48,058 bases of DNA, taken from the NCBI GenBank assembly GCA_016748015.1, contig JAAOMT010000174.1:2864-50921 (forward strand), written 5' to 3'. How positions within the stretch are numbered: position 1 is the stretch's first letter; each line of letters starts with the position of its first letter. Position numbers and translations under genes: made by a program. Of the stretch, positions 2,485 to 47,501 are shown one piece after another. Source of the stretch: Geosiphon pyriformis uo1. Its lineage: Eukaryota; Fungi; Glomeromycota. The notes beneath the pieces are model-generated. The model searched no databases. It had not been told where the DNA came from and worked only from the letters and a program-made list of their open reading frames with translations.

Positions 2485-2486
2485 TT

Positions 2487-2504
2487 TGGTGCTCTCTATG
2501 AGGT
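2487..2504 (+). promoter_or_regulatory. Primer binding site of element A
   Basis: TGGTGCTCTCTATGAGGT, 2 nt after the LTR end, closely resembling the PBS of element C. The primer tRNA is uncertain (elongator Met or Ile-like). Confidence 0.75.
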
Positions 2505-4761: not shown

Positions 4762-4909
4762 TGGTTAATTCACATAAATTCTACAAAGTTTGAGAATATG
4801 AATTTGTGATTCTGATTTCTTAATAATTGATTTATTTTAGAAGAGAAATATAGAATATAAATGATAAAGATGTATAAATATTTGATTCTTGTTTAGTAGT
4901 TTGTATTTA
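4756..4909 (-). repeat. Inverted partial LTR-A, segment 1
   Basis: Reverse complement matches ~1780-1933. Confidence 0.9.
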
Positions 4910-6264
4910 CAGAGGGGTATAAAAAGTATTGGACACTTAATATAATATATAAAAAAGACTATATATAGTAATACCATTATCAATTTAAGCCATAATTTTT
5001 TTTATAATTACTTATAGTTATAATCTACAAATCAACATAAATCACATTCTTGTAAAACACAACAGTGGATCATACACATATATATAAAATATCAAACATT
5101 TTTGTTGTGAAAAAATTTACCGCATCAAATGTGTCTTGGAAAAGAACTTTCTGAATACCAAAAAAGAGGGATTATTTCAGCAATAAAGTTAGGACATACA
5201 AACAGTGAGATTTCTATGACTATTGGATGTTCACGTTCTTCTGTAATACGTGTATAGAAGTCATATGAACTAAAAAAACTTCCTAAAAAACAAACGGGCC
5301 AACCACAAATTTTTGACAAACACATACATGAACAACTCAAATATTTAATAATAGAGAATAAAAAAACCTGCTGCCAAACTCTTTCTCAAATACAATTGAA
5401 TTTTATTAAAGATACCAACAAATCTATTTCTATACAAACTATTTGAATTGGTTTAGCTTAAGAAAGACTTCGCTCGTGCATTCCTTGTTTCAAGCCATTA
5501 ATTTCCAAATCAAATAAAGAAAAACATTTACAATGGGCTTGTACTTATGAAAATTGGACAGTAGAAGATTTTAAACAAGTTGTTTGGTCAGATAAATCTA
5601 CATATACACAATTTAGAACTACAGGATTTGGACGTGTATAGCATAAATCTTCCAAAGAGTTTCATAAGAATTGTATTGCAGCCACAGTTAGAAAAAGCTT
5701 TGGTCGCATGTTTTGGGGATGTTTTTCATGGGTTAGTTTGGGTTCTTTAGTTTTTTTGGTTGGTCATATTACTGGAGTTATACACCGTGAAACCTTGGCT
5801 AATTATGCAATTTTTACGGTAAAACTTTATGCAAAAAAAACTAAAAAAAAGTTTTTTTTTCAGAAAGACAATGCACCAATTCACACATCAAAATTCACGC
5901 ATTCTTTTCTTACCTCTTCAAATGTTGAATTACTTCCTTGGCCAGCACAAAGTCCTGATATTACTCCAATAGAAAATCTTTGATCATATATTGAAGTTAA
6001 AATTTGTCAATGTAATTCACAACCCTCAAATATTGTACAATTGGAATGGTGGATTAAGGAAGAATGGGATGCGATATCTGTAAATTACTATTGTAATTTG
6101 ATCAAGTCTATGCCATGTCGAGTTCAAGCTATTCTTGAAGCAAATGGGGGTCAAATAAAATACTAACATGTATTTTAATATAATAATAAAAAATTAACGA
6201 ATTATAAGTTAGTTCTTTTATATAACATATTATAAAAGTGTCCAATACTTTTTATACCCTCCTG
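4910..6264 (+). mobile_element. Tc1-family DNA transposon
   Basis: 29-bp TIRs (CAGAGGGGTATAAAAAGTATTGGACACTT / AAGTGTCCAATACTTTTTATACCCTCCTG), flanked by TA at 4908-4909 and 6265-6266. Confidence 0.95.
5129..6166 (+). pseudogene. Tc1 DD34E transposase with in-frame stops
   Basis: One frame containing an N-terminal HTH-like region, VVWSDKS, MFWGCF and QKDNAPIH-...-WPAQSPDITPIENL. I count 34 residues between the second D and E. Confidence 0.93.
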
Positions 6265-6510
6265 TATTTATCTGTCTGTTTTTATCTTTTACAACTACTT
6301 GCTTTTATACATTCTTTTGGTTTTATATAATTGCTTCTAATTGTTTTGTTATTGTTAACTATTGTTTTATTATTTCTGTTATTGCTTTATTTTTCTATGT
6401 TATTACTAGTTATCCTATATTATAACACATTATCTGGTGTTATTACATATTATTTTGTGTTATTTTACATTATAACATATTATTTTGCACTATCCTAAGT
6501 TATAACATGT
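6265..6510 (-). repeat. Inverted partial LTR-A, segment 2
   Basis: Reverse complement matches ~1537-1785. Confidence 0.9.
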
Positions 6511-6756
6511 TGTTACAAGTGATTATTTGGGATCTCAAATCAAATAACAAACTTATAACTTGGTGCTCAATTGATATGGTGATGTTTGTTTCTAAAGATT
6601 TTGTTGATCTGAAAGTTTTGTTGTGGAGTTTTTTGTATAATAAACAGATATTCAATTGTTATTTATCCAGTAATCTCCCAGAATTGCAATTCCATCAAAT
6701 TTCTTTCTTAGTGTGGTGGCCAGTAATTTGGCAGGGATGCCTTTTTAGTAAGCTAT

Positions 6757-7738
6757 TGTTACTGGAGGTTTTTGGTCTCTTTTCTTAAATGTTGGTAATG
6801 TTGATTTGCTGTGAATTCACGTTTTTAGGAAGTAGTTGAATCTCCAATAACTGAATTTATCTTCAAATTATCTCTTATAATTTGAACTGCTGGACTTATA
6901 AGTGGAATGGCCAATTCCTTGCCAGTTACTTTATGTAGTTACGTTGTAGTAAATGTCAACTTTTTCCCAGAAATTGCTTGTTTGGAAGCTCATTAAAATG
7001 TATAGTTACTTTGCTGTGAAAGTCAACTCTTCTACAAGAATTTTGTCTGTAGGCTACCCTAATGATTGTAATAAGAAAAAAAAAGGAAAATAAAAGAAAT
7101 GTAAAAGAAATAGAATTTTGTCAAGAGAAACGTTTTCTATCCAGGCCTGAAGTCACTAACAGTTTACTGAAATTGGTAGCTAATCAATTTCGAAATATTA
7201 GTTGGGTTTTTGGGAGTTTTTTCAAGTATAATAATTAAAGAATTTGGTTTTTCGAATTTATTTGATATTTATTTCTTTTTGTGTATATAAAAACAGTTTT
7301 TAAGAGATAAATCTAAAGTAAGATACATTTTTTCAAAGAAAGAAGCTCTTCTTTTATACAACTTGTCATAACACTATTCTATGAACTTGAACTTTGCTAT
7401 TTTCTACAATTTCGCTGAACTAAAGATATATTTCAGCAAACTACAAATTATTTTGGCAAACTATTAGATATTTTGGTGAACTATCAATTATTTTGGCAAA
7501 TTTCTACAAATTTCGGCAAACTTCTGAATGTTACATAGTTTGGGGTATTGCATGATTGATCATCACAATTAGGTTACATTTGTGTTGTGTACAATTTGGG
7601 TTATTAATTAAATGATAATTTTGGACATTTTTGCTAATGTAATAAGTGATTATTTGAAATGATAATATATGCTAATTAATGATAGGAATTATAAGATAAT
7701 TTCATGCTAAATAATATCTCTAATTTTGTCTGGTAACA
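6757..7738 (-). repeat. 3' LTR of element D
   Basis: Direct repeat of 15633-16611 with TGTTAC...GTAACA termini. Contains ~20 bp TTTCGGCAAACT repeats (~7410-7530). Confidence 0.96.
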
Positions 7739-8435
7739 TAACCTCCTCCTTAAGACTGAGCTCTGTCAAAGTCCAAGTACTATCTGTTATTTCCAGATAA
7801 TAATCCAAAATTATTGAAGAAATTTGGTCTGAAAATTGTTGAAATTTCAGTTCTGTGAGCTTTCCAATGTATTGAATCTTCAAAAGTTGAAAAATTGGGT
7901 TTTGTAGTATGTTTTCACAGGTGTGGAATAGGTCATAAAGTCTAAGAGCAGCTCTAAGCCTGTAGCAACTGTTTGTTGATCCAGCTGTTGTCTTGAATTT
8001 GTTGTGGAATTGTTTCTGAATAGCTTCTTTTGTGAGGTTTGCTGTTGTAAGTTCCAGTTTCCGTTTATAGAGTGTTTTTTCAATGTGAAAATATCTATAG
8101 ATTGGAGAATATTCAGTGTTTTCCTCATTGAGACACAGTTGAAGTTTTTGTTGAATTGTAGCATTTGGTGGAATACTAATCGGAGTGAGCATTAGGTTTT
8201 CTCTTAAAGCAAGCTTTAAAAGTTCTGGCAGGTGAATTCCAGTATAACTTCTTGTGTTCTTTTTATACGGGTGATATTTTCGTAAATTTGAGGCTAAATT
8301 TGTAACTACTTCTGTTTGGGTATAATTTATGTGGTTTCTAGTAACAATAATAGATAATTCGGGTATTGTTTTTAAAGCTAACATTAGTTTTTGGGATAAT
8401 TGTTGAATGTTTTGAAGAATAGTCATTATAAGCAA
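7707..8435 (-). CDS. ORF3 of element D: conserved accessory protein of unknown function
   Basis: Uninterrupted 242 codons (likely ATG at 8426) between IN and the 3' LTR, collinear with ORF3 of element C. Confidence 0.8.
   Translation of the reverse strand: MLIMTILQNIQQLSQKLMLALKTIPELSIIVTRNHINYTQTEVVTNLASNLRKYHPYKKNTRSYTGIHLPELLKLALRENLMLTPISIPPNATIQQKLQLCLNEENTEYSPIYRYFHIEKTLYKRKLELTTANLTKEAIQKQFHNKFKTTAGSTNSCYRLRAALRLYDLFHTCENILQNPIFQLLKIQYIGKLTELKFQQFSDQISSIILDYYLEITDSTWTLTELSLKEEVMLPDKIRDII
7739..7753 (-). promoter_or_regulatory. Polypurine tract of element D
   Basis: The minus strand reads AAGGAGGAGG-TTA immediately before the 3' LTR. Confidence 0.85.
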
Positions 8436-8595
8436 TTGAAAAAACTAAAAAAATTATTTTTGGTGTATGGATTTTTATGTTATTTTTGTTTTGTTTTTGT
8501 AAGATTGTTTTCTAAATTATAAGAGAATAACTAATAAAATTAAATTAAGTGTTCAGGTTGGAAGGTTGTTCAATGACAACTATTGGTTCTAAGTT

Positions 8596-9900
8596 TTAGG
8601 GAATATCTTCGGAACTGACCAAAGGGGAATGTGTACCAATTTGTGAAATTAATAGTTCAGGATTGTTTCTGGAATAATAGTGTTTCAAACAATCTCCATA
8701 TGCAACTTTTGCTAGGATTTTGTTATCAAGTCTTAACTTGTATGATCCATTGCTTAGGACTTCATGGATAAAGAATGGTCCATCCCATTTATTTTCAAAT
8801 TTTCTACTCCATTGTTTTTCAGCTTTAGTTCTGTGTAAGAGAACTTTGTTTCCAATTTTGAATTTATTGGTGACTGAAGGCAATTTGTCATCATGCTGTT
8901 CTTTTTGTTGAGCTTAGGAGTGTTCAATATGGGTGGCTACTATTCGTCATTTTCCTTCCAATGTGCTATGCAGAGTGTAAGCTCTTCGCTGAAGCATTTC
9001 TTGGAAATTGTTTTCATCGATTGGTTGTGCTGGATATGTTTCCACTGTAAAACTAATTGGTAAAATTGCCATCCTTCCATAAGTTAAATCAAATGGTGTG
9101 TGTTTCATGATATCTTGTTTTAATGTCTTATATGCTAGTAATACTGATGGAATAAAAAGATCCCATTCTTGCTTAAAATTGGTTGAGACTTTGGCTAATG
9201 ACTTACACAATATTCTGTTAAAATGTTCCACAAATCTGTTTGTTTGTGGATCATAGGGCGAAGACAGAGGTCTTTTGACATTGAATTGTTCACAAATTTC
9301 TTGTATCAGGTTGTTCACAAAGTGTGTTCTCTGATCGGATAAAAGTTCAATTGGACATCCATGTCTACAAATGATGTCTTCGTAGATGAAATTTGCTACT
9401 GATTTTGCATCTGTTCGTTGAATGGCTCTGGCTTCAGGCCATTTAGTAAGATAGTTTACAGTTACTGCAATATAATGGTTTTCTTGAGTGGTAATAGATA
9501 GTGGTCCGACTAAATCAATACCAACTCTGTCAAAAGGCTGTCCAACTTTGATTGGATTTAAAGATTCTGTAGAGCGAGTTTCTTCTCTTCTTTGACAACT
9601 ATCACAAGATTCGACATATTCGTGAATGTCTTTTCTTATTCGAGACCAAAAGTAGTATTCTAGTGTTCTTTGGGTGGTGCTATCTTTTCCGAAGTGTGCT
9701 GATAAAGGATCTGAGTGCATATTGTATAAAATGGTCTCTTTTTCCTGTTCTTGTATTAATCTGAGTGGTTTGGTTGGGTTTTTGAAATTTCAATGATAGA
9801 TAATGTTGTTGTGTAGAAAATATTGTTTGGCTTGTTGTTGTAACCAATGTTTTTTGTCTGGGGACCAATCTGTTGGGATTGTTAATGTCTCCAAATATTG
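8596..9900 (-). pseudogene. pol: Integrase of element D (HHCC, DDE core, GPF C-terminal module)
   Basis: H..AHFG..CDSCQ, RVGIDLVGP, ELLSDQ, NRFVEHFN, KWDGPF. Interrupted by stops. Confidence 0.95.
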
Positions 9901-9989
9901 TTTGAGATTGTTGTAGTTTTTGGAGTTCATTGTTTGTTGTTTTGATGCTGTTAATTCAAATGGGTGTTGGTTTTGTTTTCTAATCTTGC

Positions 9990-11310
9990 CTCATTCTTGA
10001 GAGACAATCAACGTTGGTGTGGAGTTTTCCTGGTTTGTGGTATACAATGTATTGGTAATTAGCTAAAAATCCTGTCCATCGGGTTTGTTTTGCGTTCAGC
10101 TGGGTATTTTTGTTTTGAAGCCATTTAAGTCCAATATTATCAGTAATAATATCAAATTCTTTGGGTCTGAGGTAAAGGTTGAAATGATGTAGGGCCCAAA
10201 TTACTGCTGCGGTTTCTAATTCTGTTGTAGAGTAGTTCTTTTCGGCTGGCTTTAATGTTCTACTAGCATAAGCAATTACTCACTTATTTCCATTGTTATC
10301 TAACTGTGATAAAATAGCACCAAAGGCAGTATAAGAGGCATCAGTTGCTAACCGGAATCAGTTGCTGAAGTCTGGGTAGGTGAGGATTGGAGCTGTTGTG
10401 AGTTTTTCTTTAAGTATCTGGAAGGCATTTTGGTGTTCTTCTGTCCATTTGTATTCGACATTTTTAGTAGTAAGCTGATTGAAGGGTTTTGCAATTTCTG
10501 AGAATCCTTTGATGAATTTTCGGTAATAGAATGCTAATCCAATAAATCCTCTTAATTTTGTGGTATTTCATGGAGTCTTGCAGTTTTTGACAGTACTGAT
10601 TTTTCCAGGGTCTGGTTTAATTTCATCTTTGCTAACAATGTGACCAAGAAAAGCTAAACTTGTTTTTCTGAAGTAGCATTTTTCAATGTTTAGTTTCAAT
10701 CCTGCTTTCTGTAATCATTGAAAAACTTCTCGCAGGTGAATTAAATGTAGCTCGAAAGATGGTGAATAAACATTAGTGTCATCAAGATAAACTACTACTG
10801 ATTTCCAAAGGAGGCCTTTGTAAACAACATCCATGAGTTTTTGGAATGTTGCTGGTGCATTGCATAATCCGAAAGGCATTACATTGAACTTGTAATTTCC
10901 TCTTTGAGTGGTAAATGCTGTTTTGGGATGGTCTTTGGGATCCATAGCAACTTGCCAGTATCCACTTTCTAAATCTAATGTTGAAAAGTATTTGGACTTT
11001 CCAAGAGCATCTAACATGTTATCAATTCGGGGAAGAGGGTAGGCATTCCCAATGGTGACACTGTTGAGTTGTCGGTAATCAACACAAAATTGTATCTTTC
11101 CATTTTTCTTTTTAACTAGGACCACAGGTGAGGCCCATGGGCTCATTGATGGTTGAATAAGCCCATTGTTAAGCATCCATTGTACTTCTTCTTGGATAAA
11201 TTGGTGACTTTCTGGGACAACTCAGTAGGCTTGTTGTCACCTTGGTTTGGCATCTCCTGTATAGATTTGGTGTTGAACCAAATCAGTTCTTCCTAAGTCA
11301 TTGTTGTTTC
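9990..11310 (-). pseudogene. pol: Reverse transcriptase and RNase H of element D
   Basis: SPWASPVVLV, FCVDYRQLN, TLDLESGYWQ, MPFGLCNAP and VYLDD. Downstream ATDAS and NYSTTELE RNase H motifs. Confidence 0.95.
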
Positions 11311-11817
11311 GGCAAAAATGTCAGCAAATTCTACAATTAGCTCTTTGAGCTGGGTCTGTTGTTGTGGTTCAAGTTGTCTCATGTTGATTCGAAATAGTTT
11401 TTCCATGACAACATAGTAGTTTTTAGAGCTAGAGTTTGGGTTGATTTTTGATAGTGAATGTCCAATAATTTCAGAGAAATCGGGGACTGTTTGAAGTAAT
11501 TCTTGTTGAAATATATTACTGTGAATAACTCCAATTTCTAAATTATTTAATAAAATTATGGGGTAATTATTGGGGTTGTAAAAAGTAACTCAGACTTTCT
11601 TTGTTTCTTCTGGAATATAAATGTTTGGAATCGAAATATTATGTTCCAAGCAGACTTGTTCATTGGACTCAAAAATTTGTTGTGTGGTTGTTGGCTTTGT
11701 GCAAGTGTAGATTTCCAGATGTTCTCCAAAGGATGAGATGGTAATTGGTTGTGGAAGTCTGAGAATTTGGTGGGATTTGTTCTGTGTATTAAGAGCTATA
11801 TTAACTGGAACTGTGAA

Positions 11818-13116
11818 TCATCCAGTTGAACCAAAACCTTGGGTTCCTCTATCGCTTTTTCCTAATTGTTCTCTTTGATTGACTAGTTGCAAACCCAAAA
11901 TATTGATTAAGGGTAGGTAAATAGCTTGGGCAATTTTTTCAGCATGTTCAATCTTGAATAGTTTGTCAGTTTCATTTTGAAGCATCACTGTTATGTCTCC
12001 AGTATATCCAGCATCAATTATTCCTCCTCTGACATTGATTCCTTTGCTTGCCAGAGAAAACCGGGAGGCAATTTGAACCATTGCTCCTGGCGGAATTTCG
12101 AGTGCAATTTTGAGATTGATTTTTGTAAGAGATTTGGGTTTGAGAACAAAAGTATCCTTGCCTGGATATTTTAGGTCATATCCAGCATCAATTTCGTGTG
12201 CTTTTTCGGGTTTTATTCCTTGTCTGTTGTTGTTGAAGTATTTAAGTTGTAAGGCAGGCTGATTTTCAATAAGGTAGATGGGTGTTGTTTCAATTTCTTC
12301 CATTTCTTCAGGTTCTCCAAATTCAATTTCATTCTCATTATTTTCGCTGGGCAAGGGGATACTAAGAGCATAGCATTCAGGACACCATTGTTCATCGCAA
12401 GGCATAATGCATTTTTCACATAGCCTAATGTTCATTTGCTCTAATCGTTGAATTTGAGCTTCTTGGGTCAAGTAGGTGTGACTTGTAATTTGGTGGTAGA
12501 CTTCTACTTCATCTTCGTAATCGAATCCAGCTAATTCTATGGTGTATTCAATGTATTCTGCTTTCTTCATTTGATGAACATCTTCTTTGGTAGCTCTATT
12601 AATTAATGCCATTACTAAGTCAAAAATTATTTCAGCATTATGAGGGTAGTGATAAAGTTTGTTGAGAGCACTGTTGTATGCTGTATTAAAAGATGTTCCT
12701 CTTTTTACTTTTTCTGAAATTGATAAAGCATATTGGCAGGTCTGATTGCAGATGCCTTCTCTCATTGCTATATCAATCCAATTGCATTTTTCCAGTAGCA
12801 TATCTCTACAAGTCAAACAAAGGGTGTTGTCCCATTTTCCGCTTCTTTTTATTAGATGGCCCCATTGCTCTTTGTGGCAAGCCTTGCAGTAATAACAAGT
12901 ATGATTCTCATATTCTTCTTCAAGTGAAATGCAGGCTTCCATTAATGATAGTTTTTTGTGGCAGTCCTTACATTTAAGGGGAATATAGGGGTGTTGTTTT
13001 CTTGGTTCGGGTTTTGAGTAAGGTATATTCCATCCAGAGGTTTCGGGTTTAATGTGTAGGGTAAAATGTTCTTGTTCTGTTTCATTGGCCCAGTTGGATG
13101 TTGATCCAAGAGCCAT
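11818..13116 (-). CDS. dut: Polyprotein segment of element D: Cys-rich multi-CxxC domain plus trimeric-type dUTPase
   Basis: All five dUTPase motifs are present (AGYDL, ASRFSL, GIIDAGYTG, KIAQ, RGTQGFGSTG). Upstream are CKDC, CKAC, CLTC, CNQTC and CEKC-x3-C-x4-CPEC. Confidence 0.92.
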   Translation of the reverse strand: MALGSTSNWANETEQEHFTLHIKPETSGWNIPYSKPEPRKQHPYIPLKCKDCHKKLSLMEACISLEEEYENHTCYYCKACHKEQWGHLIKRSGKWDNTLCLTCRDMLLEKCNWIDIAMREGICNQTCQYALSISEKVKRGTSFNTAYNSALNKLYHYPHNAEIIFDLVMALINRATKEDVHQMKKAEYIEYTIELAGFDYEDEVEVYHQITSHTYLTQEAQIQRLEQMNIRLCEKCIMPCDEQWCPECYALSIPLPSENNENEIEFGEPEEMEEIETTPIYLIENQPALQLKYFNNNRQGIKPEKAHEIDAGYDLKYPGKDTFVLKPKSLTKINLKIALEIPPGAMVQIASRFSLASKGINVRGGIIDAGYTGDITVMLQNETDKLFKIEHAEKIAQAIYLPLINILGLQLVNQREQLGKSDRGTQGFGSTG

Positions 13117-13189
13117 GAATGTTTCGATTATTGGTTTTTTTTCTTCTGGTTCAAATTTAAAAGCTGGGGCTTTTTCAGAGCGTTTGTTG

Positions 13190-15600
13190 AATGTACCACA
13201 AATGGCAGATACCCGGGCGTGTTGTCCTTGGTAAGAGATTGTTAACTCTTGTGTTTCTCAATTCAGATTAGCATTGGCTTTTTGAAGCCAATCATTTCTG
13301 ACAAGAGCTTAATACTGGGGTGCATTCATTACAAGAACTTTGACTGGAATGGTGATTCCATCAAGAGTGAATGGAAAATTGTCAATTTCTCTTACTGGGG
13401 TCTTTTTCATGTCATCAGCAGTGACAATTACTGTTTGAGCTGGTTAGTCGACATTTCTTTTCAACTGTTGCATTAACTGGTAGGTGATAATGTTTCCGGC
13501 AGATCCACTGTCTAGGATCAAGTGAATTGGCTTTCCTTCTACTTCAGCTTCTGTGTATATTACAGTGATGGCTTTTTGCTCATTAGCCGCTGTATTGCTA
13601 AGCAAAAATGGTGATTCATTTGCTTCAAATTCAAAAGAAAAGATATCAGAAAGATTGGCGTTTTCAGCAATTCGGGCTGGTGGAATAGTGATGTGGTTAT
13701 GAGAAGGGTTTCATTGTTGTTGTGCTGTAGCTCTACCTTCCGAAAGTACAGTATAGTGAAAATCCTGTTCTTCCGGCATTGTTAAATAACTGGGTTGAGT
13801 GTGGTAATGGTTGGGTCTTGGTTGAGTGGTATTTTAGGGAACAATTGGTTGTTCGAACTGATTCTACTGTTGTTTACTTGGTATCGGTTTTGTGGTGTAA
13901 ATTGATTTTGTGTAATCAGTCTTCAAGCAGGTACTTGATAATGTTGTGTGGGTGGTTGTTGGTATTGCTGTTGGATTGGTTGTGGGGCAGGCTGATAATA
14001 GTTATTTTGGTATTGGGGTTTTGGTGAATAGTAAGCTGGTGGTGATAGTTGATAATAAGATTGCTGTGGTGGAGAGTAACATTGATTACTCCTATTTTGT
14101 TGGTCTCGTTGCAGCTTTCTGCAATCTCTTTTCCAGTGGCCAGAGATTCCACAGTAATGGCAATTCTGGGGCTGGTTATTGGAAAGTGGTGCAAAGTTAT
14201 TTTGATTTCGTCTTTGGGGTGGTTGATATCTTTGGGGTTGTTGTTGTTGTTGGTTGGTAAAATAGTTTTCGACCTTCTTTGTGAGTTGGTCAATTTTTTC
14301 CTCAGCTGCTAAGCTGGTTTCTCCAATTGCCAAATTTACAAGTTTTGTATGATTGGCTTCTTCTATAGCTATTTTGTATCTTTTCGCATGCTGTATGGCA
14401 GAGTTTAAATCTTCTGGCACGTGTAGGTGAACCTTTTTAATTAGTTTATCTTTTAGACCAGTGATAAATTGATCCAAGATTTGAGCATCGGAATAATAAT
14501 CATTTGTCTTGAGTTGGCAAATTCATCTGAGAAGTTTGTTGAATTTCCCAATATAAGTCATAACGGATTCGGAGGGTTCTTGTTTGATATTTCAAAAACG
14601 ATTGCGAAAAGTGATGGAGGTATTATTGTCGGTGAACTGTTTAAGGAAGGCTGCTTTGAAAACATTTCAATTATTAAATAGGGCAGCAAGGTTTTCAAAC
14701 CATTCTCCTGCTGTTCCTTTGAGAAAGTAGGGAATTGTTCTTAACATTCTGGCAGCGTTCCATCCATTTGCATCTCCAGCTTTAGTAACTTGGTCGAGCC
14801 ATTCTTGGGGACTGGTTTTAATATCTTCTCCATTGAATTCAGGAATTTTTGCAATGTATGTTGTCATTTCGTCTTCTCCGTTTTCATCATCTATTGATTT
14901 TTCTTTGGTTATTTCAGAGTTGTTTTCTTTGTTTGCTACTGTCTCAGAGTGTTCACTTTGATTTTCAGCTAGAAAATCAAGGAGATTGGAATTAGTTTGA
15001 AGGGGTTCTTGTTGTCTGGTGGGACTTCTGAGTGATGTAAAATCTTCTGGTCTTGCAAATCAATTCAAGAGTGAATTAGGTGTTTGTGCTTGTGCAAGTA
15101 AAGCTAGAAAAGGTGTGATAGTAAGTGGAAGTTTTGAGCTGGTTCTTTGTTCAGGTGTTTGTAAATGTTTGAATGATATTTTGGGAGTATTGGGTGTTGT
15201 GTGAACAGGTCGGTTATTTTTTTGTCTTTTGTTGCTACTAGTTTCAGTTTCAAATTCGAGTTCAAAGGCAAATTGTGCATTTGAAGGATATTTTTCTTTG
15301 CAGAATTGAATGATATTATAATCAAGTTCCTTAAAATAAGTAGCACAAGCTTCAGCACTAATGTTTTCTGATTCAGTATTGGAATAGTGTAGTATGTTCT
15401 CAAGAAGATCTTTTTTAACTGTTGTAATATTATAGTTCCCAAAGAGATAGTCATTGATTCAATTTTCGATGTATTGAAAAAATGTATTCTTGAAAGCTAT
15501 GATTCCGTCACATATTTCAAATCATTGTTTGCAGTGTGTGTAAATTGATTGATAGTACTCTAAGGTTGTGATGTCTGAGGCGGTCACCACTTTGAATTTG
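13190..15600 (-). pseudogene. gag: gag (capsid-like plus CCHC knuckle) and aspartic protease of element D
   Basis: IAKIPEFNGED..PQEWL..ANGW, DQFITGL, CHYCGISGHWKRDC, and HLILDSGSAGNII near 13490-13525. Confidence 0.92.
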
Positions 15601-15612
15601 TTGCTGTGTTAT

Positions 15613-15630
15613 TTCTGTGGAAGAGCACCA
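15613..15630 (-). promoter_or_regulatory. Primer binding site of element D
   Basis: The minus strand reads TT-TGGTGCTCTTCC after the LTR end. Confidence 0.7.
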
Positions 15631-15632
15631 AA

Positions 15633-16611
15633 TGTTACTAGAAGTTTTTGGTCTCTTTTCTTAAATGTTGGTAATGTTGATTTGCTGTGAATTCACGTTT
15701 TTAGGAAGTAGTTGAACCTCCAATAACTGAATTTATCTTCAAATTATCTCTTATAATTTGAACTGCTGGACTTATAAGTGGAATGGCCAATTCCTTGCCA
15801 GTTACTTTATGTAGTTACGTTGTAGTAAATGTCAACTTTTTCCCAGGAATTGCTTGTTTGGAAGCTCATTAAAATGTATAGTTACTTTGCTGTGAAAGTC
15901 AACTCTTCTACAAGAATTTTGTCTGTAGGCTACCCTAATGATTGTAATAAGAAAAAAAAAGGAAAATAAAAGAAATGTAAAAGAAATAGAATTTTGTCAA
16001 GAGAAACGTTTTCTATCCAGGCCTGAAGTCACTAACAGTTTACTGAAATTGGTAGCTAATCAATTTCGAAATGTTAGTTGGGTTTTTGGGGGTTTTTCCA
16101 AGTATAATAATTAAAGAATTTGGTTTTTCGAATTTATTTGATATTTATTTTTTTGTGTGTATAAAAATGGTTTTTAAGAGATAAATCTAAAGTAAGATAC
16201 ATTTTCTCAAAGAGAGAAGCTCTTCTTTTATACAACTTGTTGTAACACTATTTTATGAACTTGAACTTTGCTATTTTCTACAATTTTGCTGAACTAAAGA
16301 TACATTTCGGCAAACTACAAGTTATTTCAGCAAACTATTAGATATTTCGGTGAACTATCAATTATTTTGGCAAATTTCTACAAATTTCGGCAAACTCTGA
16401 ATATTACATAGTTCGGGGTATTGCATGATTGATCATCGCAATTAGGTTATATTTGTGTTGTGTACAATTTGGGTTATTAATTAAATGATAATTTCGGACA
16501 TTTTTGCTAATGTAATAAGTGATCATTTGAAATGATAATATATGCTAATTAATGATAGGAATTATAAGATAATTTTATGCTAAATAATATCTCTAATTTC
16601 ATCTGGTAATA
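15633..16611 (-). repeat. 5' LTR of element D
   Basis: Direct repeat of 6757-7738, with one terminal C>T change (GTAATA). Confidence 0.96.
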
Positions 16612-17205
16612 CTATCCTTAAATTCTTAATTCCTATACTCTTCCTTTGGGGTCTTTTACCAGGCTATCTTTGATGTTAATAACTCAGTGCTTAATTTTTA
16701 ATCAATTAGTAAAACAAAGAAATAATAAAAATAAAAGAAAATAAAAGAAAATAAGCCAAAGTAATAAATATTAGTATCCTATTAATAGCTGTGATCAAGA
16801 ACTATTGTTCCAGTATAGTTAAGTATTAATTGTTATCAACATGAAGTATTAATAGTGAAGAGTGAATTTGATATTGAATAATTATTTATTTGATATTTGT
16901 GAAGTAAAAGGTTGCTTAGATTAAATCTAAATTGGAAGATCTGTTTTTTTTCTATTTTTAACACTACTGATATATATACATAATTAAGATTTCTCAATTC
17001 CTCAATTCTTCACACCAGAAATCCTACAATTCCTTTGAAAAAAATTCTGGAATTCTGGAATCCTGCAATTTCTTATATGAGAATTCTGAAATTTCTGAAA
17101 TCCTGCAATTTTTTTGAGAAAAATCCTGGAATTTTATATTTACTATGACTACTTCTGATTGGCTAATTTATGTACTAATATATGTTCCATATTCTATAAG
17201 TAACA

Positions 17206-17300
17206 ATATTATCTAATATTATTGCATACTATTCTGTGTTATGTCATATTCTGGTTATGTTTCTTCATAACTTCAGATCAGTTTTTCTACTTAGATAACA
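17206..17300 (-). repeat. Inverted partial LTR-A, segment 3 (LTR 5' tip)
   Basis: Reverse complement matches 1445-~1540. Confidence 0.9.
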
Positions 17301-17423
17301 ATGTTTTACAAGTGCAGCCCAATTACTATCTAGTATACAGAATCAAAACTATAGATCCTAACTAAACACAATTCACATATTTACCATATATGACCAGTCA
17401 CTTAGACTAATTAAAGCAATATT

Positions 17424-24369: not shown

Positions 24370-24452
24370 AAAAATAATAATAATTAGCAATAAAACAAAT
24401 TACAGCAACAAAATAACCAGTAATAACAGCAAAATAACTAGTAACAAAATAA
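24370..24452. repeat. Left part of a degenerate AACAARATAA minisatellite
   Basis: Same units as 31411-31832, separated from them by LINE copy 2. Confidence 0.7.
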
Positions 24453-37705: not shown

Positions 37706-38592
37706 TGTTACTCATAGAAATATAGAAAATATATTAGCATAATTATTAGCCAATCAGAAGTAAGCATAGTAAATATAGAATTCCAGGATTCTTCTTAGGA
37801 ATTGCAGAATTCCAGGAATTTCAGGATTCCCAACGAGAAATTGCAGGATTCCAAAATTCCAAGATTCCTCTCAAAGAAATTGCAGGATTCCAAGAATTCC
37901 AGGATTTCTATCGTGAAGAATTAAGGAATTGAGAAATCCCAATTATGTATATATAGCAGTAGTGTTAAAAACAGAAAAGACAGAATTGATACCACAGAAT
38001 CCTTAGCCTAGAAATGCAATCATCAAATAAATAATTATTTTATATCTCCATCCACTTCCCCACTATCAACCCTTCATGTTGATAGTAATTAATACTTGAC
38101 CACACTGGAACAATAGCTCTTGATCATGGCTATTGATGGGATACTAATCTGCAAATTGCCTTGGCTTATTTCTTTGCTTTCTTTATTTCCTTTTATTTCT
38201 TTTTTTTCTTTATTTTATTTTGATTTGTTGTTATATACTAATTGATAAACGATTAAGTGCTGAGTTATTGACGTTAAGAATAGCCTGGTAAAAGACCCAG
38301 AAATACAGGTAGGATTTTTATATATTATCGGATAGCTTACCAGAAGAGCACGACTGCCAGACTAAATCTGGCCACCATGCTGAGAAAGAAATTGGGAAAA
38401 CTTTTGAAAAATATCTCTACTATTGACACTATTGAATCTCTGTCTATTATATAAAGGACTCAACCAAAACTTTCAGATCCATCAAAACCTTCAGATACAG
38501 TACCTGCAGAACAGCCTCAACAGAAGTAGCTTTTGAGCACCAAGTTATGGGTTTGTTATTTAATTCAACAGCAGAAATAATCACTTGTAACA
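37706..38592 (+). repeat. 5' LTR of element C
   Basis: TGTTAC...GTAACA, direct repeat of 46615-47501, with a GGAATTNCAGGATTCC array at ~37778-37910. Confidence 0.97.
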
Positions 38593-38594
38593 TT

Positions 38595-38612
38595 TGGTGC
38601 TTCCTGTGAGGT
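38595..38612 (+). promoter_or_regulatory. Primer binding site of element C
   Basis: TGGTGCTTCCTGTGAGGT, 2 nt after the LTR. Confidence 0.8.
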
Positions 38613-38654: not shown

Positions 38655-41416
38655 GTGGCAAAATCAGAAAACATAGGAGCAAATCATTTAGGATTCATAA
38701 AATCTTTATTTCAACATTATTGTCAATACTTAGAATTAAACCACAATCATATATCCGCCAAATCAGCCTTTAATTTCTACGTCAACAAAAAAATTTCCTC
38801 TTTATTGGGAACACCAGTGAACACTGACTCAGCAAGAGAAACTTTCTATAAGGAATTAATTCAAAACACCAACCTACCAACAAACCATAATTTTCCATCT
38901 ATCATCACTGAGATCAACAAAGAAATTGAACACCATACTTAACAAAGATATCCAATTACATACACTAGTAAAGGCAAGAGAAAATTACAAACACCAGCAG
39001 TAACACCCCGAAAAATACAGCCACCTGCTTGGAAGAAAAACAGAGTTGAATCCCTAAGCAACCTATCCTACCACTATACATCTGGAAGCACCATCAACAT
39101 ATCATTAACCAATGCATTTCCATCAACTGTGACATCAGCATTTAGATGATTCCTATTCCAAAGTAGACAAAGAAAAACAGAATTGTTAAGACCATATAAC
39201 AAATACTTTGAGGGATTTATTTCGCAATCATCAACCCCATCAGGACTTCGATCACTACCGCCTCCACCAAATTTCGGAATCTCTGATCCATAGGAAGCAG
39301 CAGAATCAGAAAAAGAGGAAGAAGAATCAGAGGATCAAGAATTCACTTACCTACATCCAATCCCTGAAAACCCGGAAGTTGAAACCCGAACATTCAAACT
39401 CAGTAACAGTTAAAAAATCTGGAAATTGAAACTCTGAATATTCGAATGCTGCCAAATCCAAAAAATCAAAAACCCAAATTAATTAATCAGCAAAACTTAC
39501 CTCCAGTAATTGTTATTGATCAACTGCCGATTAATCCAGTAGTCAAATCTATACAACAGCCACTTCAACTACCACCCCAACAACTACTTCAACAGCCATT
39601 ACAACCATCTAACCTAGACCCAATGGACTATGCACCCATCGCAAAACTCGACAACTTTACTGGCGAAAAAGATGATGCTCAAATATGGCTGAATGATGTA
39701 GAAAAGACCATCACAGCCAACAGATGGAATGACACTTGAGCAATGCAAACCATTTCCTACTTTCTCAAGGATACCACCAATTCATGGTACCAGAGCTTGG
39801 TTAATAAACCACAAGATTTCAATGCCTTCAAAGCAAAATTCCTAAGATACTTCAGCAACAACAATAGCATCAATCACCTAATCAATACATTCACCACCAT
39901 AAAACAAGAAGAAACTGAAGCAGTTACCACTTACCTGAGACGCTTCCATTGAAACTTGTACCAAATTCAAGCAATTGACAACAACTATTTCACAGCACCA
40001 CAGATATTCAACCAGTTTATCCATGGCCTATGCAGCAGCATCTTGCAACATGTACGTCTGTTGCATCCTGGCATGCTTCAAGACACAGTCACACATGCCA
40101 GAGATTTTGAATCTGCTGAGTCAGAAGCTAACCATGCTCAAGCCATTAATCTAGTAATGAATGGATCATCTGAATTGGATTCTAAATTAGAAAAGTTCAG
40201 TGAATCAATCAATAAGAGATTGGAAGGATACTTAGCTGACAATCACACCATCTATTAGCCTCCACAACGACGCAATAACCAAGGACATCCTAATCATGGC
40301 CAAAATCAATGATGTCCATCTTCATCAACCAATCAACAGTGGCAACAGGAAATGCATATCTGCCACTATTGTGGTAACCAAGAACATATCCAAATTGACT
40401 GTCACCAGCGTTTAAATAACCAACAATTGGGAAATCAATATCGAAACCCCAATCACCAGTTCCAAACTCCGAATCAGTACCCAAATCAAAACCCACCCGC
40501 TTACTTACCAGTAACACAGTCATCAGTCTATTAGTCTCCAGTATATCAACCTCCGATTTATCAGCCGCAGCCACAAGTAATATATCAACTGCAGCCACAA
40601 ATAATTTATCAACCCCAACAGATCCAAACACCACCCCAAAACTTACCACATAACAGAATCCAAAGACCGAGAATGAGTCAACAGAGCTGGAGATTGGCAA
40701 TAGTAGTTCATCAACCGATCCCCAATTCTTCACAGCAACCATCTGGATTATGCCAGTGGAATTCGGGTACTGGTTAACTCCAGAACCCGAATTCCCAGAA
40801 CTATTTAAGTCTTCTGGTCACCCCAGAAGATGCTTTAACTAATAACCCGGCATTTACACCAAAACAACCACTCATCAGTAATATCCCACCTGCTATCATC
40901 ACCAAAAACAAGTCATTGGCCACTATTTTCTCATTCGAATTCGAGGAAACAGCTGCAACGCTATTGTTTAGTGGAGCCGCTCTTGAAGCCAAACCAATCA
41001 CCACGATGTACACTGACGCCAAAGTTGAAGGACAATCCATCAAATTGATCCTGGACAGTAGTTCTGCAGGCAGCATAATCACAAAACAACTCATGGATCA
41101 ATTAGGTTGCTGAATTGATTGAGCTGCCAGCGCCAAAATCATCACTGCCAATGGAGCGACCAAAACTCCAATCAGCAAAATCGATGACTTTCCTTTTGAA
41201 GTCAATGGCATCGTGACTTCCATTAAAGTTCTAGTAATAGAAGCCACTCAATACCAAGCTCTTGTTGATAATAACTGGCTATCCAAAGTCAATGCAATGT
41301 TAGACTGGAACACCCAAGAACTCCAGCTAATGTATCAGAGCCAACACATACATGTTCCGGCCACATGTGGCCACTTCAAAACTCCTCCAAGAGAGAAACT
41401 ATTGATTGAACTGTAG
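38655..41416 (+). pseudogene. gag: gag and aspartic protease of element C
   Basis: YAPIAKLDNFTGE, NQFIHGL, CHYCGNQEHIQIDC, a Q/P-rich linker, and IKLILDSSSAGSII. One frame from 39446. Confidence 0.92.
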
Positions 41417-41714
41417 GAGGAGAAAGAAAAGCCTATCTGAAAAGCCTACCAAGTGTCGTGGGCGGATGAAGAGCACAACGAACTACTGCCGATACTCTCT
41501 TGGGATGACAACAACAAGGAAAAAAGGAAACAGAAGGAAAAACTTACCTGGAAAACTGATGACCTGACATGGACCGACAATGACGAGAGCGAACTGATGT
41601 CAAGCTGGGAATGGGAAGAGGACAAAAAAAATAAAGAAAAAGGGAAAGAAGAAGAGACCACCCAAACTACCACCATTTATAACACCTACACTATACCACA
41701 ATGATCTACTTATC

Positions 41715-42350
41715 ATTGACCTAAGCTGATATGTATTAATTGTGACAAGAAATTGTCGTCAATGGATGCATACTGTGGGGACGATGAGGAATATTCAACA
41801 GCAACTAGGTTTTATTGCCACCCATGTGTCTTTGAATGCTTTGGAAGACCAAAACAAGTAGGAAAATGGGACAATCAGCCATGTTTAGCTTGTGGAAAGA
41901 CTCTTTTGGACGAAGAGATATGGAACGACATCCCAGAATGTGAAAGAACGTGTGATGTATCATGTCAATACATGATTCTAATAAGTGACTGGGTAAGGAA
42001 AGAAACCCCAATAAAAGCAGTCTGGAGAAGAGCCGTACAGTGACTGGACAGTTGTTCATATGACAATGACAAAATTTGGCAAATGGCATGTGCCAAAATC
42101 AAAGGGGCAACACCAGAAGAGATAAAAACAATCAAAGACAACCCCTCAGAACCTTTAGAGCTTGACTGGGACGCAGAACCCATCATAAACCTCCTGGATC
42201 CAGAACAATTTCACGAACACTACCAAGAATTAGCACCCACAAGGGAAGAATAAGAACAATGGTTAGAGCAGTTGAACACTTGACTATGTCAACACTGCCT
42301 AATTCCCTGTGACTTCCAGTATTGTGATGAGTGTGATCTCATTTACAATT
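41715..42350 (+). pseudogene. Cys-rich multi-CxxC domain of element C
   Basis: CINC, CHPC, GKWDNQPCLAC, CDVSCQY and LCQHCLIPCDFQYCDEC, collinear with element D. Confidence 0.85.
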
Positions 42351-42421
42351 CACCACCACGCATAATCTACTCAATCTCTGAAGAAGAAGAACCAATCAGC
42401 AGCTGCACATCAGAATCAGAA

Positions 42422-43156
42422 TTGTTGATCAATCACGATTCAAACTCCGACAATGATGACGATAACAATAGTTCAAGCTCTGTTCAAATTGGCAATGATG
42501 ATGAAAACGATTCAGACTCAGATTCAAAACCCAATGTAAACTATGAACAATACATTGCACTACCAGATCTCTCCAAAGAACAAGAGTTGAAATGTTATAG
42601 TGACAATGGGGAAGGTATTATGCCAGAACGTGCGCATGATACGGATGCAGAGTTTGATTTGAGATATCCAGGAAAAAATGCCATCAAATTAGAACTGCAT
42701 TCACACACCTGCATTGATCTGAAAATAGCACTAGAAATTCTGACAACAACAATGGTTCAATTAGCATCTAGAAGTAGTTTAGTGAAAAGAGGGATTAATA
42801 TAAGAGGAGGAATAATTGACACAGAATATGTAGAAAATATTATCACTATGCTACAAAATGACTCAGAAAAGGCCTATGTAATAGAACCCAATAAAAAGAT
42901 AGCACAGGCAATATTCCTGCCTCTGGTTAGAATAGCTCAGTTAGTATCAGTAAGAAAGAGGGAGGAATTAGGAATAACGGCGAGAGGAATACAGGGATTC
43001 GGATCCACAGGTAGAATAGATGTACTAGTTAACATGGCAGAGGAAGAAACTATTGGCCAAGGAGAAATTATTTCAACTGGTCAAGCTATTTCCATCCCAC
43101 CATATAGCCAGTATATGTTAGCAATAGAAAGGAAGGAAAAGGAGCAAGAAACTTAG
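42422..43156 (+). CDS. dut: Polyprotein segment with dUTPase, element C
   Basis: AEFDL, ASRSSL, GIIDTEY, KIAQ and RGIQGFGSTG. Confidence 0.92.
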   Translation: MLINHDSNSDNDDDNNSSSSVQIGNDDENDSDSDSKPNVNYEQYIALPDLSKEQELKCYSDNGEGIMPERAHDTDAEFDLRYPGKNAIKLELHSHTCIDLKIALEILTTTMVQLASRSSLVKRGINIRGGIIDTEYVENIITMLQNDSEKAYVIEPNKKIAQAIFLPLVRIAQLVSVRKREELGITARGIQGFGSTGRIDVLVNMAEEETIGQGEIISTGQAISIPPYSQYMLAIERKEKEQET

Positions 43157-44471
43157 ATCCATTCCAATGTATGCAGCTCAAGATGTTACTCAACAATTTT
43201 AATGACATTTTTGTCAGCAAAAATAAGTTTGGCTAAACTGACATCATCCAGCATCAGATCAAGACTGGAGATGGATTGCCAATTAAATAAAGAACATACA
43301 GAGTGCCGCCAGCCAGCCATGAGATTATTTGTCAAGAGATAAACAGAATGCTTGACAACAGGCTAATTCAACCATCAATGAGCCCATGGTCGTCACCGGT
43401 ACTTGTCCATAAGAAAAATGGAAAAATCTGGTTTTGTGTAGACTACAAGAAACTCAATGGTGTAACTCATAGAGACAGTTATCCAACTCCACGAATACAG
43501 GAATTATTCGATGCTTTTGGTAAGAACAAATGGTTCTCCACATTAGATTTGGACAGTGGTTACTGGCAAGTAGCCATGAATCCAGCTGACAAAGAGAAAA
43601 TAGCATTTACTACTAAAGAAGGGAATTTTGAATTTAAAGTGATGCCATTCGGCTTAACCAATGTCCCAGCAACTTTCCAATGGCTAATGGAAATTATTTA
43701 TACTGGCTTATTGTGGATCATCTTCAACAAGTGTTTGAAAGACTGAGAAGAGCAGGACTGAAGTTGAATGCGACAAAATGCTTCTTTGGCAAGACAGAAC
43801 TCAAATTTTTGGGACACATAGTCAGCAAAGATGGCATCAAAACAGATCCAGAAAAAATAGAGATAGTAAAGAACTTTCCAGTGCTGACCAATATGACAGA
43901 ACTGAAATCATTTTTGGGATTTGCCAGCTACTATCATTGTTTTATCAAGAACTTTTCCAAGATAGCACAGCCACTCAATCAACTGCAAAACAAAAATGTG
44001 AAATATGAATGGACAGAAAGTCAACAAGAAGCTTTTGATATTTTGAGGAAAAAGCTTATCCAAGCTCCAGTACTGATCTATTCAAATTACAGCAAACCAT
44101 TTATCATCACCACCGATGCATCCAGCCAAGCATTGGGAGCAGTATTATCTCAGAGAGAACTGGATGGCAGAAAACATTCAGTAGCATATGCCAGCAGAGG
44201 TTTAACACCAGCCAAAAAGAACTATGGAACACCAGAACAAAAACACTTAGCAATATACTGGGCCATCATGAAATGGAAAGAATACTTGAGCCAAAAGTTT
44301 GAAGTATACACAAATCACAAGGGATTAACATCACTTCAAAAACAAGAATTTGGAGATGGAAGACAGTCAAGATGGAAAATGGCACTCCCACTATATAATT
44401 ATACTATACATTATAAAAAGAGAAAAGACAATGGAAATGCTGATGGTTTATTGCGAATAAGACAAATCTAA
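43157..44471 (+). pseudogene. pol: RT and RNase H of element C (YLDD motif deleted)
   Basis: SPWSSPV, CVDYKKLN, TLDLDSGYWQ, MPFGLTN; GLLW joins directly to DHLQQVF. Then TTDASS and NADGL. Confidence 0.94.
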
Positions 44472-44539
44472 GAACATTTCAACCCAAAAATATAATAAAA
44501 CCAGAACAATACCAACAGAAAAATACAACAAAAGGTGAA

Positions 44540-45800
44540 CATACAAAAATATCAACAATTGCAACATTATCTAAATACTCAACAGTTCAAGGAGAATTTA
44601 TCTCATATGGAATGAAGAAGTATCAAACAACAATCAAAATATTTTATCACTTACCAAAATATACTTTATCGGAAAAATAGAAGAGATCCAGATCAACCAA
44701 CCAGAGTAATTACAGAGCCAGAAAAAGAGACAGTATTATTCAACATGCACTCAAATCCAACAGCAGGACATTTTCACAAAGAAGCAACCATAGAAAGAAC
44801 TAGAAAAAGATACTATTGGCCATCAATGTACTCAGACATCATTTAATATGTTCAAAATTGTGATGCTTGTCAGCGAAGAGGAAGAACAAGACCCAGTGAA
44901 CTATTAAGACCAACCAAAGTAAGACAACCATTTGACTGTATGGGAATTGATTTAGTTGGACCATTAACAATCACCAGCAGAGGAAACAGATACATAGCAG
45001 TAACTATAGACTATCTCACTAAATGGCCAGAGGCAAAAGCAATTCAAAGAGCGGATGCAGAATCCATTGCCGAATTCATTCATCAGGATTTAATTTGTCA
45101 ACATGGATGTCCAAAAGAATTATTATTAGACCAAGGAACTCATTTTGTGAACAAAACATTAACAGAATTAGGCCAAAGATTCGGAATCAAAAGACCATTA
45201 TCATCACCATACCATCCACAAACCAATAGATTAGTAGAAAGATTCAACAGAACATTGTGTGAAGCAATAGCCAAGCTCAGATAAGAAAACCAGAATGATT
45301 GGGATTTGTTTATACCATCAGTACTATTTGCTTATCGGACAATGAAACAGGATACTACACAAGCAACACCATTTGAATTAGTATATGAGAGAATAGCAAC
45401 ATTACCAGTAGAGAGAAAAATTAATACATATTCAGCTGAACCAATAACAGAGGAAAATTTTCAAGAAACATTGCTGAGAAGAACATATGACTTAATGGAA
45501 ACATTGGAAAACAAACAAAGAAGAGTAGCTAATAATATCCAAAAGTCACAAGAAACACAGAAAGAAAGACACGATAGTCAATTATCAGACAAACCAGTTG
45601 AATTCAAGATTGGAGACAAAGTATTACTACATTGTATCAAAGCAGAAAAACAATGGAGTGGAAAATTTGACCCCAAATGGGATGGACCATTTCACATAGA
45701 AGAAATTCTAGGAAATGAAGCTTACAAATTAAAATTGAATAACAAAATTTAAACCAAAGCAGCACATGGAGATCGACTGAAACCATATCACAACATCACA
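44540..45800 (+). pseudogene. pol: Integrase of element C
   Basis: H..AGHF..CDACQ, GIDLVGP, LLDQGTHF, LVERFNRTL and KWDGPF. Confidence 0.95.
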
Positions 45801-45941
45801 CTACTATCTACCAGTAATATTCTACAATTAGGAATACAGAAAATACTAGTCCAACCAGATGAAATTCCATAAGATCGGGAACCAATCATTATTATCGACA
45901 ACAACACGTTAAATTAATTCATCAAAAGAATATATAAAGAC

Positions 45942-46601
45942 ATGGTAGACATGACAGGAAATATCAGAAAAATGGAAATTACAGACAACATTCACTCACT
46001 AGCACAACAACTCTTTCAATTAATCCAACACCAAGAAATGGAGATTACAATCAATTAACAAACCATTCAATATCAAGATACTAGAAAGACATTTCAACTC
46101 AGAACACAGAAGAAAACTGAAAATACTGTGGACAAAATCATGGCAAAAGTAAAATTAGCAATAAAAGAATCGACAAAGGAGTCACTATATCAAGAGTTGA
46201 CTAAAGAAACTTGGAATTGGTGGATACAACAATTTCCACAAAACTATTGTTATTTTTACTTGGAACAACACATAAATATTCAGAATCTATATATGGATAA
46301 AACAAAGTGATTATTTGACAAAAGAATACTACAACAATTAGAACATTTTGTGGGAAAGAACAACTTATCCACACAAGCTTGAACCATATATTGAATACAT
46401 ACACCATTTCAAGATAAACCAGAAATATTGCTCAATAAAGCAATGGATAGGGTTACCAGTAATCAATTGGGAAAAATCACCAATGCTCAATTTGAAGAAT
46501 TACAGACCCAAATAACACAAGTAATTCTTGAAAACAAAATCCAGAAAATACTTCAAGAGGGGGAATTACATGAGTTAGATTTCGACAGAGCTCAATATTA
46601 A
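45942..46601 (+). pseudogene. ORF3 of element C (four in-frame stops), homolog of element D ORF3
   Basis: One frame from ATG 45942/45972 to TAA 46601. Each stop is a TAA or TGA explainable by C>T. Includes track ORF 46128-46310. Confidence 0.8.
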
Positions 46602-46614: not shown

Positions 46615-47501
46615 TGTTACTCATAGAAATATAGAAAATATATTAGCATAATTATTAGCCAATCAGAAGTAAGCATAGTAAATGTGGAATTCCAGGATTC
46701 CTTTTAGGAATTGCAGGATTCCAGGAATTTCAGAATTCCCAACAAGGAATTGCAGGATTCCAGAATTTTAGGATTCCTCTCAAAGGAATCACAGGATTCC
46801 AGAAATTCCAGAATTCCTATTGTGAAGAATCGAGGAATTGAGGAATCCCAATTATGTATATATAGCAGTAATGTTAGAAACAGAAAAGACAGAATCGATA
46901 CCACAGAATCTTTAGCCTAGAAATGCAATTATCAAATAAATAATTATTTTATATCTCTATCCACTTTCCCACTATCAATCCTTCATGTTGATAGTAATTG
47001 ATACTTGACTATGCTAGAACAATAGCTCTTGATCATGGCTATTGACAGGATACTAATCTGCAAATCACCTTGGCTTATTTTTTTGCTTTTTTTATTTCCT
47101 TTTATTTCTTTTTTTTCTTTATTTTATTTTGATTTGTTGTTATATACTAATTGATAAACGATTAAGCATTGAGTTATTAATGTCAAGGATAGCCTGGTAA
47201 AAAATCCAGAAATACAGGTAGGATTTTTATATATTATCAGATAGCTTACCAGAAGAGCACGACTGCCAGACTAAATCCGGCCACCATGTTGAGAAAGAAA
47301 TTGGGAAAACTCTTGGAAAATATCTCTACTATTGACATTATTGAATCTCTGTCCATTATACAAAGGACTCAACCAAAACCTTTAGATCCATCAAAACCTT
47401 CAGATACAGCACCTGCAGAACAGTCTCAACAGAAATAGCTTTTGAGCACCAAGTTACAGGTTTGTTATTTAATTCAACAGTAGAAATAATTACCTGTAAC
47501 A
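46615..47501 (+). repeat. 3' LTR of element C
   Basis: Direct repeat of 37706-38592. Confidence 0.97.

Follow-up and report, generated by a model that had tools for sequence, protein, structure and literature searches.

A 48,058-nucleotide stretch of contig JAAOMT010000174.1 from the fungus Geosiphon pyriformis uo1 (the window; GC content, 30.6%) contains two long terminal repeat (LTR) retrotransposons of the Ty3/Gypsy type, which we call D (positions 6757-16611, minus strand) and C (37706-47501, plus strand). D and C are dead, decayed copies from two families of one lineage. In both, the open reading frame (ORF) for Gag, protease, a cysteine-rich (Cys) domain, dUTPase, reverse transcriptase (RT), and RNase H (ORF1) is followed by an integrase ORF of its own and then by a third ORF (ORF3). 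An earlier reading of this DNA from its letters alone (the original prediction) had joined RT, RNase H, and integrase in a single polyprotein; D and C each encode integrase in an ORF apart from the other two, a departure from the canonical Gypsy gene layout.

The two elements are clearly related and clearly distinct. The LTR pair of D (980 bp) is 96.5% identical and that of C (887 bp) is 92.2% identical; between elements, the LTRs have just two 19-nucleotide matches in common (E values of 0.009 and 0.37). Amino acid identity between D and C is 41% in the Gag capsid-nucleocapsid region, 52% in protease, and 64%/51% in RT, and all modules score far above shuffled controls. Dissimilar LTRs and divergent gags had been predicted, as had the common ends that we find: a primer-binding site (PBS), TT-TGGTGCT, directly after the 5' LTR in each element, 4-bp target site duplications (TSDs; CTAT/CTAT and ATGT/ATGT), and TGTTAC/GTAACA at seven of eight LTR ends, with one transition at the exception, the D end at 16611. 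The window contains no tRNA genes; as a guess, the primer might be an elongator tRNA-Met. Pfam recognized capsid, protease, and dUTPase in both elements and, in D, the CCHC knuckle and an integrase whose tail is SH3-like (Gag families PF03732, PF19259, and PF00098). LTRs, PBS, polypurine tract, Gag capsid and nucleocapsid, the order protease-RT-RNase H-integrase, and a Gypsy-type RT identify both elements as Metaviridae.

Both copies have decayed heavily. D has 23 premature stops in 2539 codons and C has 27 in 2328, and C has lost its YxDD segment at 43716-43719. Transitions account for 101 of 102 LTR differences, and the rate of C-to-T decay is 0.55 at CpG versus 0.11-0.15 elsewhere. Compared with sister contigs, 258 of the 371 majority differences of D are private C-to-T or G-to-A changes. 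Both elements are members of very abundant Geosiphon families: 45,596 contigs of one public DNA run span all 30 bins of the D interior, and the Cys-domain region of D is a 100% match to an annotated Geosiphon pyriformis protein.

A separate integrase ORF in D, C, and an intact relative

A stop codon lies four residues past the last RNase H motif in D and in C. The integrase ATG of D follows after a 49-nucleotide spacer in the +1 frame relative to ORF1, whereas in C the relation is frame 0 with intervening stops. The two integrases are colinear, of equal length, and 55% identical. Pfam found no chromodomain in the integrase of D, the one scanned, and the C integrase aligned to it over its length, as expected from the predicted lack of a chromodomain. 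Among sister contigs of C, A stands at the integrase start in all covering depth (57 contigs) and no variant of ≥25% is listed at the RNase H stop; spacer length varies, and some variants are out of frame. Loose contig ends occur at the D spacer in the public DNA run.

Upstream of the stop, ORF1 is continuous. The gag/protease frame break of D is crossed in frame by 18 Geosiphon proteins, and 33 of the 38 matches that reach the break before RT run through it. Because both frameshifts are private to D, its family reads from Gag to RNase H in a single frame. The original prediction of a single gag-dUTPase frame in C is correct as to the frame, but this frame carries 15 stops, and a Gag-like N-terminal stretch lies upstream in another frame. 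The linker after dUTPase is 148 residues long in D (11372-11817) and about 45 in C (43013-43150).

An intact relative, the circularly assembled metagenome contig L001, has the same layout. A single open frame of 2018 codons encodes Gag, protease, a Cys region, dUTPase, RT, and RNase H, and the integrase ATG overlaps the RNase H stop. L001 also has a third ORF, an LTR start TGTTAC, a similar PBS and, as in D and C, a GAGCTCA motif just 5' of the 3' LTR. The three-ORF layout is therefore conserved among sister copies as well as in this intact relative.

The split extends beyond these elements. We built an RT-RNase H tree of 96 rows, in which D, C, and L001 were joined by 93 of 120 RT matches (27 with <330 aligned residues were left out). 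Besides D, C, and L001, a 60-row clade (SH-aLRT support of 91, or 96 when the fused sister P0336 is included) contains 50 proteins that end ≤25 residues past RNase H; 7 further members do not extend to the RNase H end, and all 53 complete members terminate shortly past it. Proteins that continue past RNase H fall outside this clade without exception (25/25), as does P0267, which has multiple RTs and a short tail. The same protein length recurs on different contigs (509 residues in 5/8, 1321 in 8/12, and 1020 in 4/5), and the stops are therefore likely real. Hosts in the clade or its clusters include Rhizophagus clarus and Paraglomus brasilianum, and most members are metagenome proteins. The metagenome scan covered 31 of 64 parts, and 2 of its 51 loci were element-type. 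In viral-contig scans, none of 80 dUTPase loci had an RT or protease match, and the integrase gave no match.

A second boundary was seen in some relatives. RT-RNase H proteins represented by P0282, P0313, and their clusters begin at a constant Met, some 90-100 residues ahead of RT; in the 20-row tree group nearest D and C, such starts give 509 residues in 5/8 members and 505 residues in 8/15 listed. In that group, Gag-protease and RT-RNase H might likewise be encoded apart.

Accessory modules, ORF3, and surrounding repeats

The multi-CxxC domain, dUTPase, and third ORF reported in both elements were all recovered. Thirteen cysteines, grouped 4, 4, and 5, are common to the D-family alignment and C; the domain is 36% identical between D and C (Z score of 56) and has a predicted load of about three zinc ions. 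The dUTPases are 55% identical, and that of D (PF00692; Pfam E value of 5e-21), aligned to 3lqw, retains all five motifs, including the motif 3 aspartate. The ratio of nonsynonymous to synonymous differences (pN/pS) between D and C is 0.60 (0.49-0.72) for the Cys domain and 0.33 for dUTPase; this ratio is coarse and is the only one quoted because synonymous sites are saturated between families. Both modules are under purifying selection, and the prediction of a real nonchromoviral Gypsy lineage with conserved extra modules thus holds.

Is this set of modules fixed, as had been proposed? Among 24 single-RT relatives with an upstream protease, 18 carry a different zinc module, of the WxGP-CWC type, 5 have no CxxC, and only P0302 carries a dUTPase, a related one 53% identical to that of D. 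The Geosiphon Cys profile matched 0 of the 120 RT matches. In L001, dUTPase is accompanied by the last Geosiphon zinc module (hhalign probability of 95%), a WxGP module, and additional CxxC pairs; the relative L002 has that last zinc module and dUTPase. We infer that the region between protease and RT is a variable accessory slot, which in Geosiphon holds the Cys domain. We rejected the idea that the Geosiphon Cys domain and the WxGP-CWC module are homologous (hhalign probabilities of 0.3 and 1.2%). At least 304 database proteins match the Cys domain and at least 200 match ORF3, the best 120 in each case being all Geosiphon hypothetical proteins. For these two modules, scans against Pfam and PHROG gave weak matches or none, and the ESM Atlas gave only leads, all <0.9; PDB sequence searches returned dUTPases or noise only.

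ORF3 is a diverged family. Its D and C versions are 25% identical (Z score of 12; score of 108 versus 58 for the best shuffle), and a profile built without the C ORF3 and two C-family proteins finds the C ORF3 at an E value of 2e-40. The end of the D ORF3 lies inside the 3' LTR (7707-7738). Among cluster representatives there are 94 matches at E ≤ 0.001; of 10 that we checked, 7 are from Geosiphon and 3 from metagenomes, and two of the latter are full-length (P0394 and P0397). The retention of full-length ORF3 in divergent families suggests selection. None of five third ORFs has a transmembrane segment (maximal 19-residue hydropathy, 0.1-1.3), which argues against the virus-like element first proposed. 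A structural model from P0397 is mostly helical and soluble with a pLDDT of 80 (an earlier ORF3 model had 45); searched against PDB and BFVD, it gave no match with Foldseek at E ≤ 0.001, nor with VIA at Z ≥ 5, which does not by itself show a new fold. ORF3 might tentatively be viewed as a helical nucleic acid-binding regulator rather than an envelope. Many annotated Geosiphon "genes" (P0388, P0429, P0401, and P0417 among them) resemble chimeras of ORF3, integrase, and other repeat fragments and were probably joined by gene prediction.

The original prediction saw in the Cys domain, dUTPase, and ORF3 a fixed kit that counters host defense. All three are kept in both families, two of them under purifying selection; the decay described above is heavy and would be host imposed; and arbuscular mycorrhizal fungi methylate transposable elements and target them with small RNAs (10.1101/2021.03.30.436303). 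The modules are nevertheless patchy across the clade, and ORF3 lacks the membrane segment of an envelope. Moreover, dUTPase is powerless against the deamination of methylcytosine, and it cannot prevent the C-to-T decay, fastest at CpG, that we observe. We found no support for a counter-defense role and regard such a kit as improbable. The enzyme probably keeps uracil out of cDNA when the host supplies little dUTPase, as is described for lentiviruses and betaretroviruses (PMC4531489; also PMC2864245).

D itself sits in other repeats. It is inserted in a reverse-oriented solo LTR (6511-6756 and 16612-17205) that is about 70-73% like the C LTR, with TGTTAC/GTAACA ends and a 4-bp TSD (ATGT/ATAT). 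The lineage has a third element in the window, truncated and located at about 1950-4761, with PBS TT-TGGTGCT at 2487, Gag capsid plus CCHC at 3350-4159, and a protease start cut at about 4761. Around it are inverted arms that are 83-89% alike (1444-1933 versus 4756-4909, 6263-6511, and 17206-17301), the right one broken up by later insertions; they are possibly those of a foldback or terminal inverted repeat element with a captured Gypsy fragment. Two opposed copies of another decayed element, 65-68% alike (18850-20473 versus 27846-29471 and 22359-23744 versus 24430-25810), are apparently LINE-like by their ORF translations.

Table 1. Coordinates of the features of elements D and C in the window
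Feature	Position	Strand	Remarks
D 5' LTR	15633..16611	-	LTR pair comparison
D primer-binding site core	15624..15630	-	Two bases past 5' LTR
D ORF1, Gag-protease-Cys domain-dUTPase-linker-RT-RNase H	9980..15590	-	Interrupted by stops and by private frameshifts near 13842 and near 11310; approximate start
D Gag capsid (PF03732) and CCHC knuckle (PF00098)	14115..14735	-	Pfam
D aspartic protease	13231..13593	-	Pfam
D Cys-rich domain	12340..12990	-	13 cysteines common with C; three predicted zinc sites
D dUTPase, five motifs	11821..12249	-	Pfam
D RT and RNase H	9983..11308	-	
D RNase H-integrase spacer	9931..9979	-	49 nt; 41/49 A or C; no ATG, no GT
D integrase, separate ORF, own ATG	8545..9930	-	HHCC, rve, SH3-like tail; no chromodomain
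D ORF3, 239 aa, open	7707..8426	-	Through polypurine tract into 3' LTR
D 3' LTR	6757..7738	-	LTR pair comparison
D target site duplication	6753..6756	.	Second copy 16612-16615
C 5' LTR	37706..38592	+	TSD 37702-37705 and 47502-47505
C primer-binding site core	38595..38601	+	
C Gag-protease-Cys-dUTPase frame	39446..43156	+	15 internal stops
C Cys-rich domain	41717..42346	+	
C dUTPase, motifs 1 and 3 eroded	42584..43012	+	Pfam
C RT-RNase H, stop at end	43216..44471	+	YxDD segment deleted
C RNase H-integrase spacer	44472..44534	+	63 nt; 51/63 A or C; two further in-frame stops
C integrase, separate ORF	44535..45917	+	GTG in this copy; ATG in every sister contig that covers it
C ORF3, homologous to D's, internal stops	45942..46601	+	
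C 3' LTR	46615..47501	+	LTR pair comparison

Possible routes to integrase

How would integrase be made from an ORF that begins beyond a stop codon? We lean toward a reading in which Gag through RNase H is made as one protein, integrase has a gene of its own that is likely translated by ribosome restart, and a third, soluble protein is encoded downstream. ORF1 would be translated without a frameshift and then cut by its own protease, giving Gag and RT in equal amounts. Ribosomes terminating after RNase H would begin again at the first AUG, beyond an unstructured spacer rich in A and C or, in L001, at the overlap. The yield of integrase would fall below that of Gag, and its packaging would depend on binding to RNA, Gag, or RT and not on fusion.

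The RNase H stop could in principle be bypassed by frameshifting or readthrough, or reflect mere decay, leaving Pol an ordinary polyprotein, and the many premature stops in both copies fit decay. But the stop is common to sister copies, the intact L001, and 50 other proteins, and C has three in-frame stops before its integrase start codon. The frame relation differs among D, C, and L001, which argues against frameshifting or readthrough. This view is largely refuted, and we consider it very improbable.

The same layout could also be served by subgenomic RNAs, with integrase and ORF3 expressed from an internal promoter or by splicing; foamy viruses, for example, express Pol apart from Gag. Consistent with this, D and C have spacers rather than overlaps, the 118-nucleotide integrase-ORF3 spacer of D contains a T-run ending in AG that resembles a splice acceptor, and in other LTR elements ORF3s typically come from spliced messages (PMC5408684). 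The overlap in L001, however, leaves no room for an intron and the RNase H-integrase spacers lack GT, which together argue against splicing at this junction, and tight coupling of stop and start would be purposeless if integrase had its own message. We judge subgenomic expression the main rival and the less probable route, although one with an appreciable chance; for the restart step taken alone, the odds against it are close to even.

Several observations weigh against our preferred reading, in which restart supplies integrase. When an ORF is as long as ~1,850 codons, restart after it normally depends on a tethering element, and near the stop in all three junction regions we found neither UGGG(A), the tethering motif of the calicivirus type, nor an unusual fold (z scores of -1.6, 1.3, and 0.4). 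Compared with termination-reinitiation in RNA viruses, L001 has the stop/start overlap, but the stop and start of D and C are 49 and 63 nucleotides apart. The tree came from a quick search and was midpoint rooted, with database matches as outgroups and no named reference clades. The ORF3 profile did not detect the third ORF of L001, so its homology to ORF3 is positional only, and the rest of the L001 Cys region is not significantly similar to that of Geosiphon (Z scores of 0.3-2.0). The comparison of selection by module, suggested with the original prediction, favors the Cys domain and dUTPase but not ORF3, for which pN/pS is 0.85 (0.73-1.03), indistinguishable from 1 and near synonymous saturation. 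Last, ORF3 gave two hits below significance, to DUF1016_N (YhcG-N; best E value of 0.05, in 3/32 members) and to a helical region of Spo0J (ParB; Z score of 3.8, root mean square deviation of 5.0, 93 aligned residues).

Relation to known elements and consequences

In the Metaviridae profile, integrase lies inside pol and a third gene occurs only as env, with transmembrane domains (PMC7879559). In D and C, by contrast, integrase is an ORF of its own and ORF3 has no hydrophobic segment. They also differ from chromoviruses in lacking a C-terminal integrase chromodomain and from Errantivirus and other env-bearing Gypsy elements in that ORF3 is not a transmembrane envelope glycoprotein.

Closer parallels exist, each by description in sources available in part. 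Like D and C, the bdelloid rotifer elements Juno, Vesta, and TelKA have dUTPase between protease and RT, a non-env ORF3, and no chromodomain, and Juno has an extra zinc knuckle, although it follows dUTPase. Their ORF3s, in contrast, encode GDSL esterases, DEDDy nucleases, or transmembrane proteins, and a separate integrase is not described for them there (PMC5408684). In fungi, PosPlaTy3-5 of Postia, Phanerochaete elements, and Tmt1 of Tuber place dUTPase in the same slot; they belong to basidiomycetes and an ascomycete, largely bear chromodomains, acquired dUTPase independently, and in the available text have no described multi-CxxC domain or separate integrase (PMC2864245). Ylt1 and SN_1006 are likewise fungal Gypsy elements without a chromodomain (PMC2864245 and PMC3248453), and the 25-species table consulted for them includes no Glomeromycotina genome. 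Planarian Burro/GYPSM1 elements carry accessory domains, including a dUTPase-like one, between protease and RT, but their other accessory domains differ, their env is in frame, and they are much larger (PMC6431247). Because the dUTPase slot is known in fungi, rotifers (in Juno with a knuckle), and planarians, the combination of dUTPase, zinc motif, and ORF3 is less unusual than the original prediction held, and its uniqueness is not supported, as Juno has all three.

We found no description of the lineage, its Cys domain, its ORF3 family, or its separate integrase in the literature searched, which lay apart from subscription papers, supplements, Repbase, and GyDB; that the lineage has already been described somewhere seems rather unlikely. 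A broader proposal, which we hold to be possible but doubtful, is that these elements represent an undescribed, Glomeromycotina-wide Gypsy clade with a three-cistron genome. Integrase would be made by coupled restart and packaged without a Gag-Pol fusion, the slot between protease and RT would be a modular zinc finger/dUTPase site, and ORF3 would be a new family of helical nucleic acid-binding regulators acting like a retroviral accessory gene.

For the host, LTR elements make up 41.2% of the G. pyriformis genome (PMC11952901); given this cover and the numbers of proteins matching the Cys domain and ORF3, many predicted G. pyriformis genes are probably fragments of transposons. Neither the Cys domain nor ORF3 was matched in Pfam, PHROG, or PDB in this analysis, and the two make up uncharacterized protein families. 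In Gypsy elements and retroviruses, integrase is normally packaged by its fusion into Pol (PMC7879559). A widespread fungal clade with an unlinked integrase must handle integrase translation, dosage, and packaging in another way, and the layout probably demands an unusual route to make and package the enzyme, a question that intact relatives such as L001 make directly testable.

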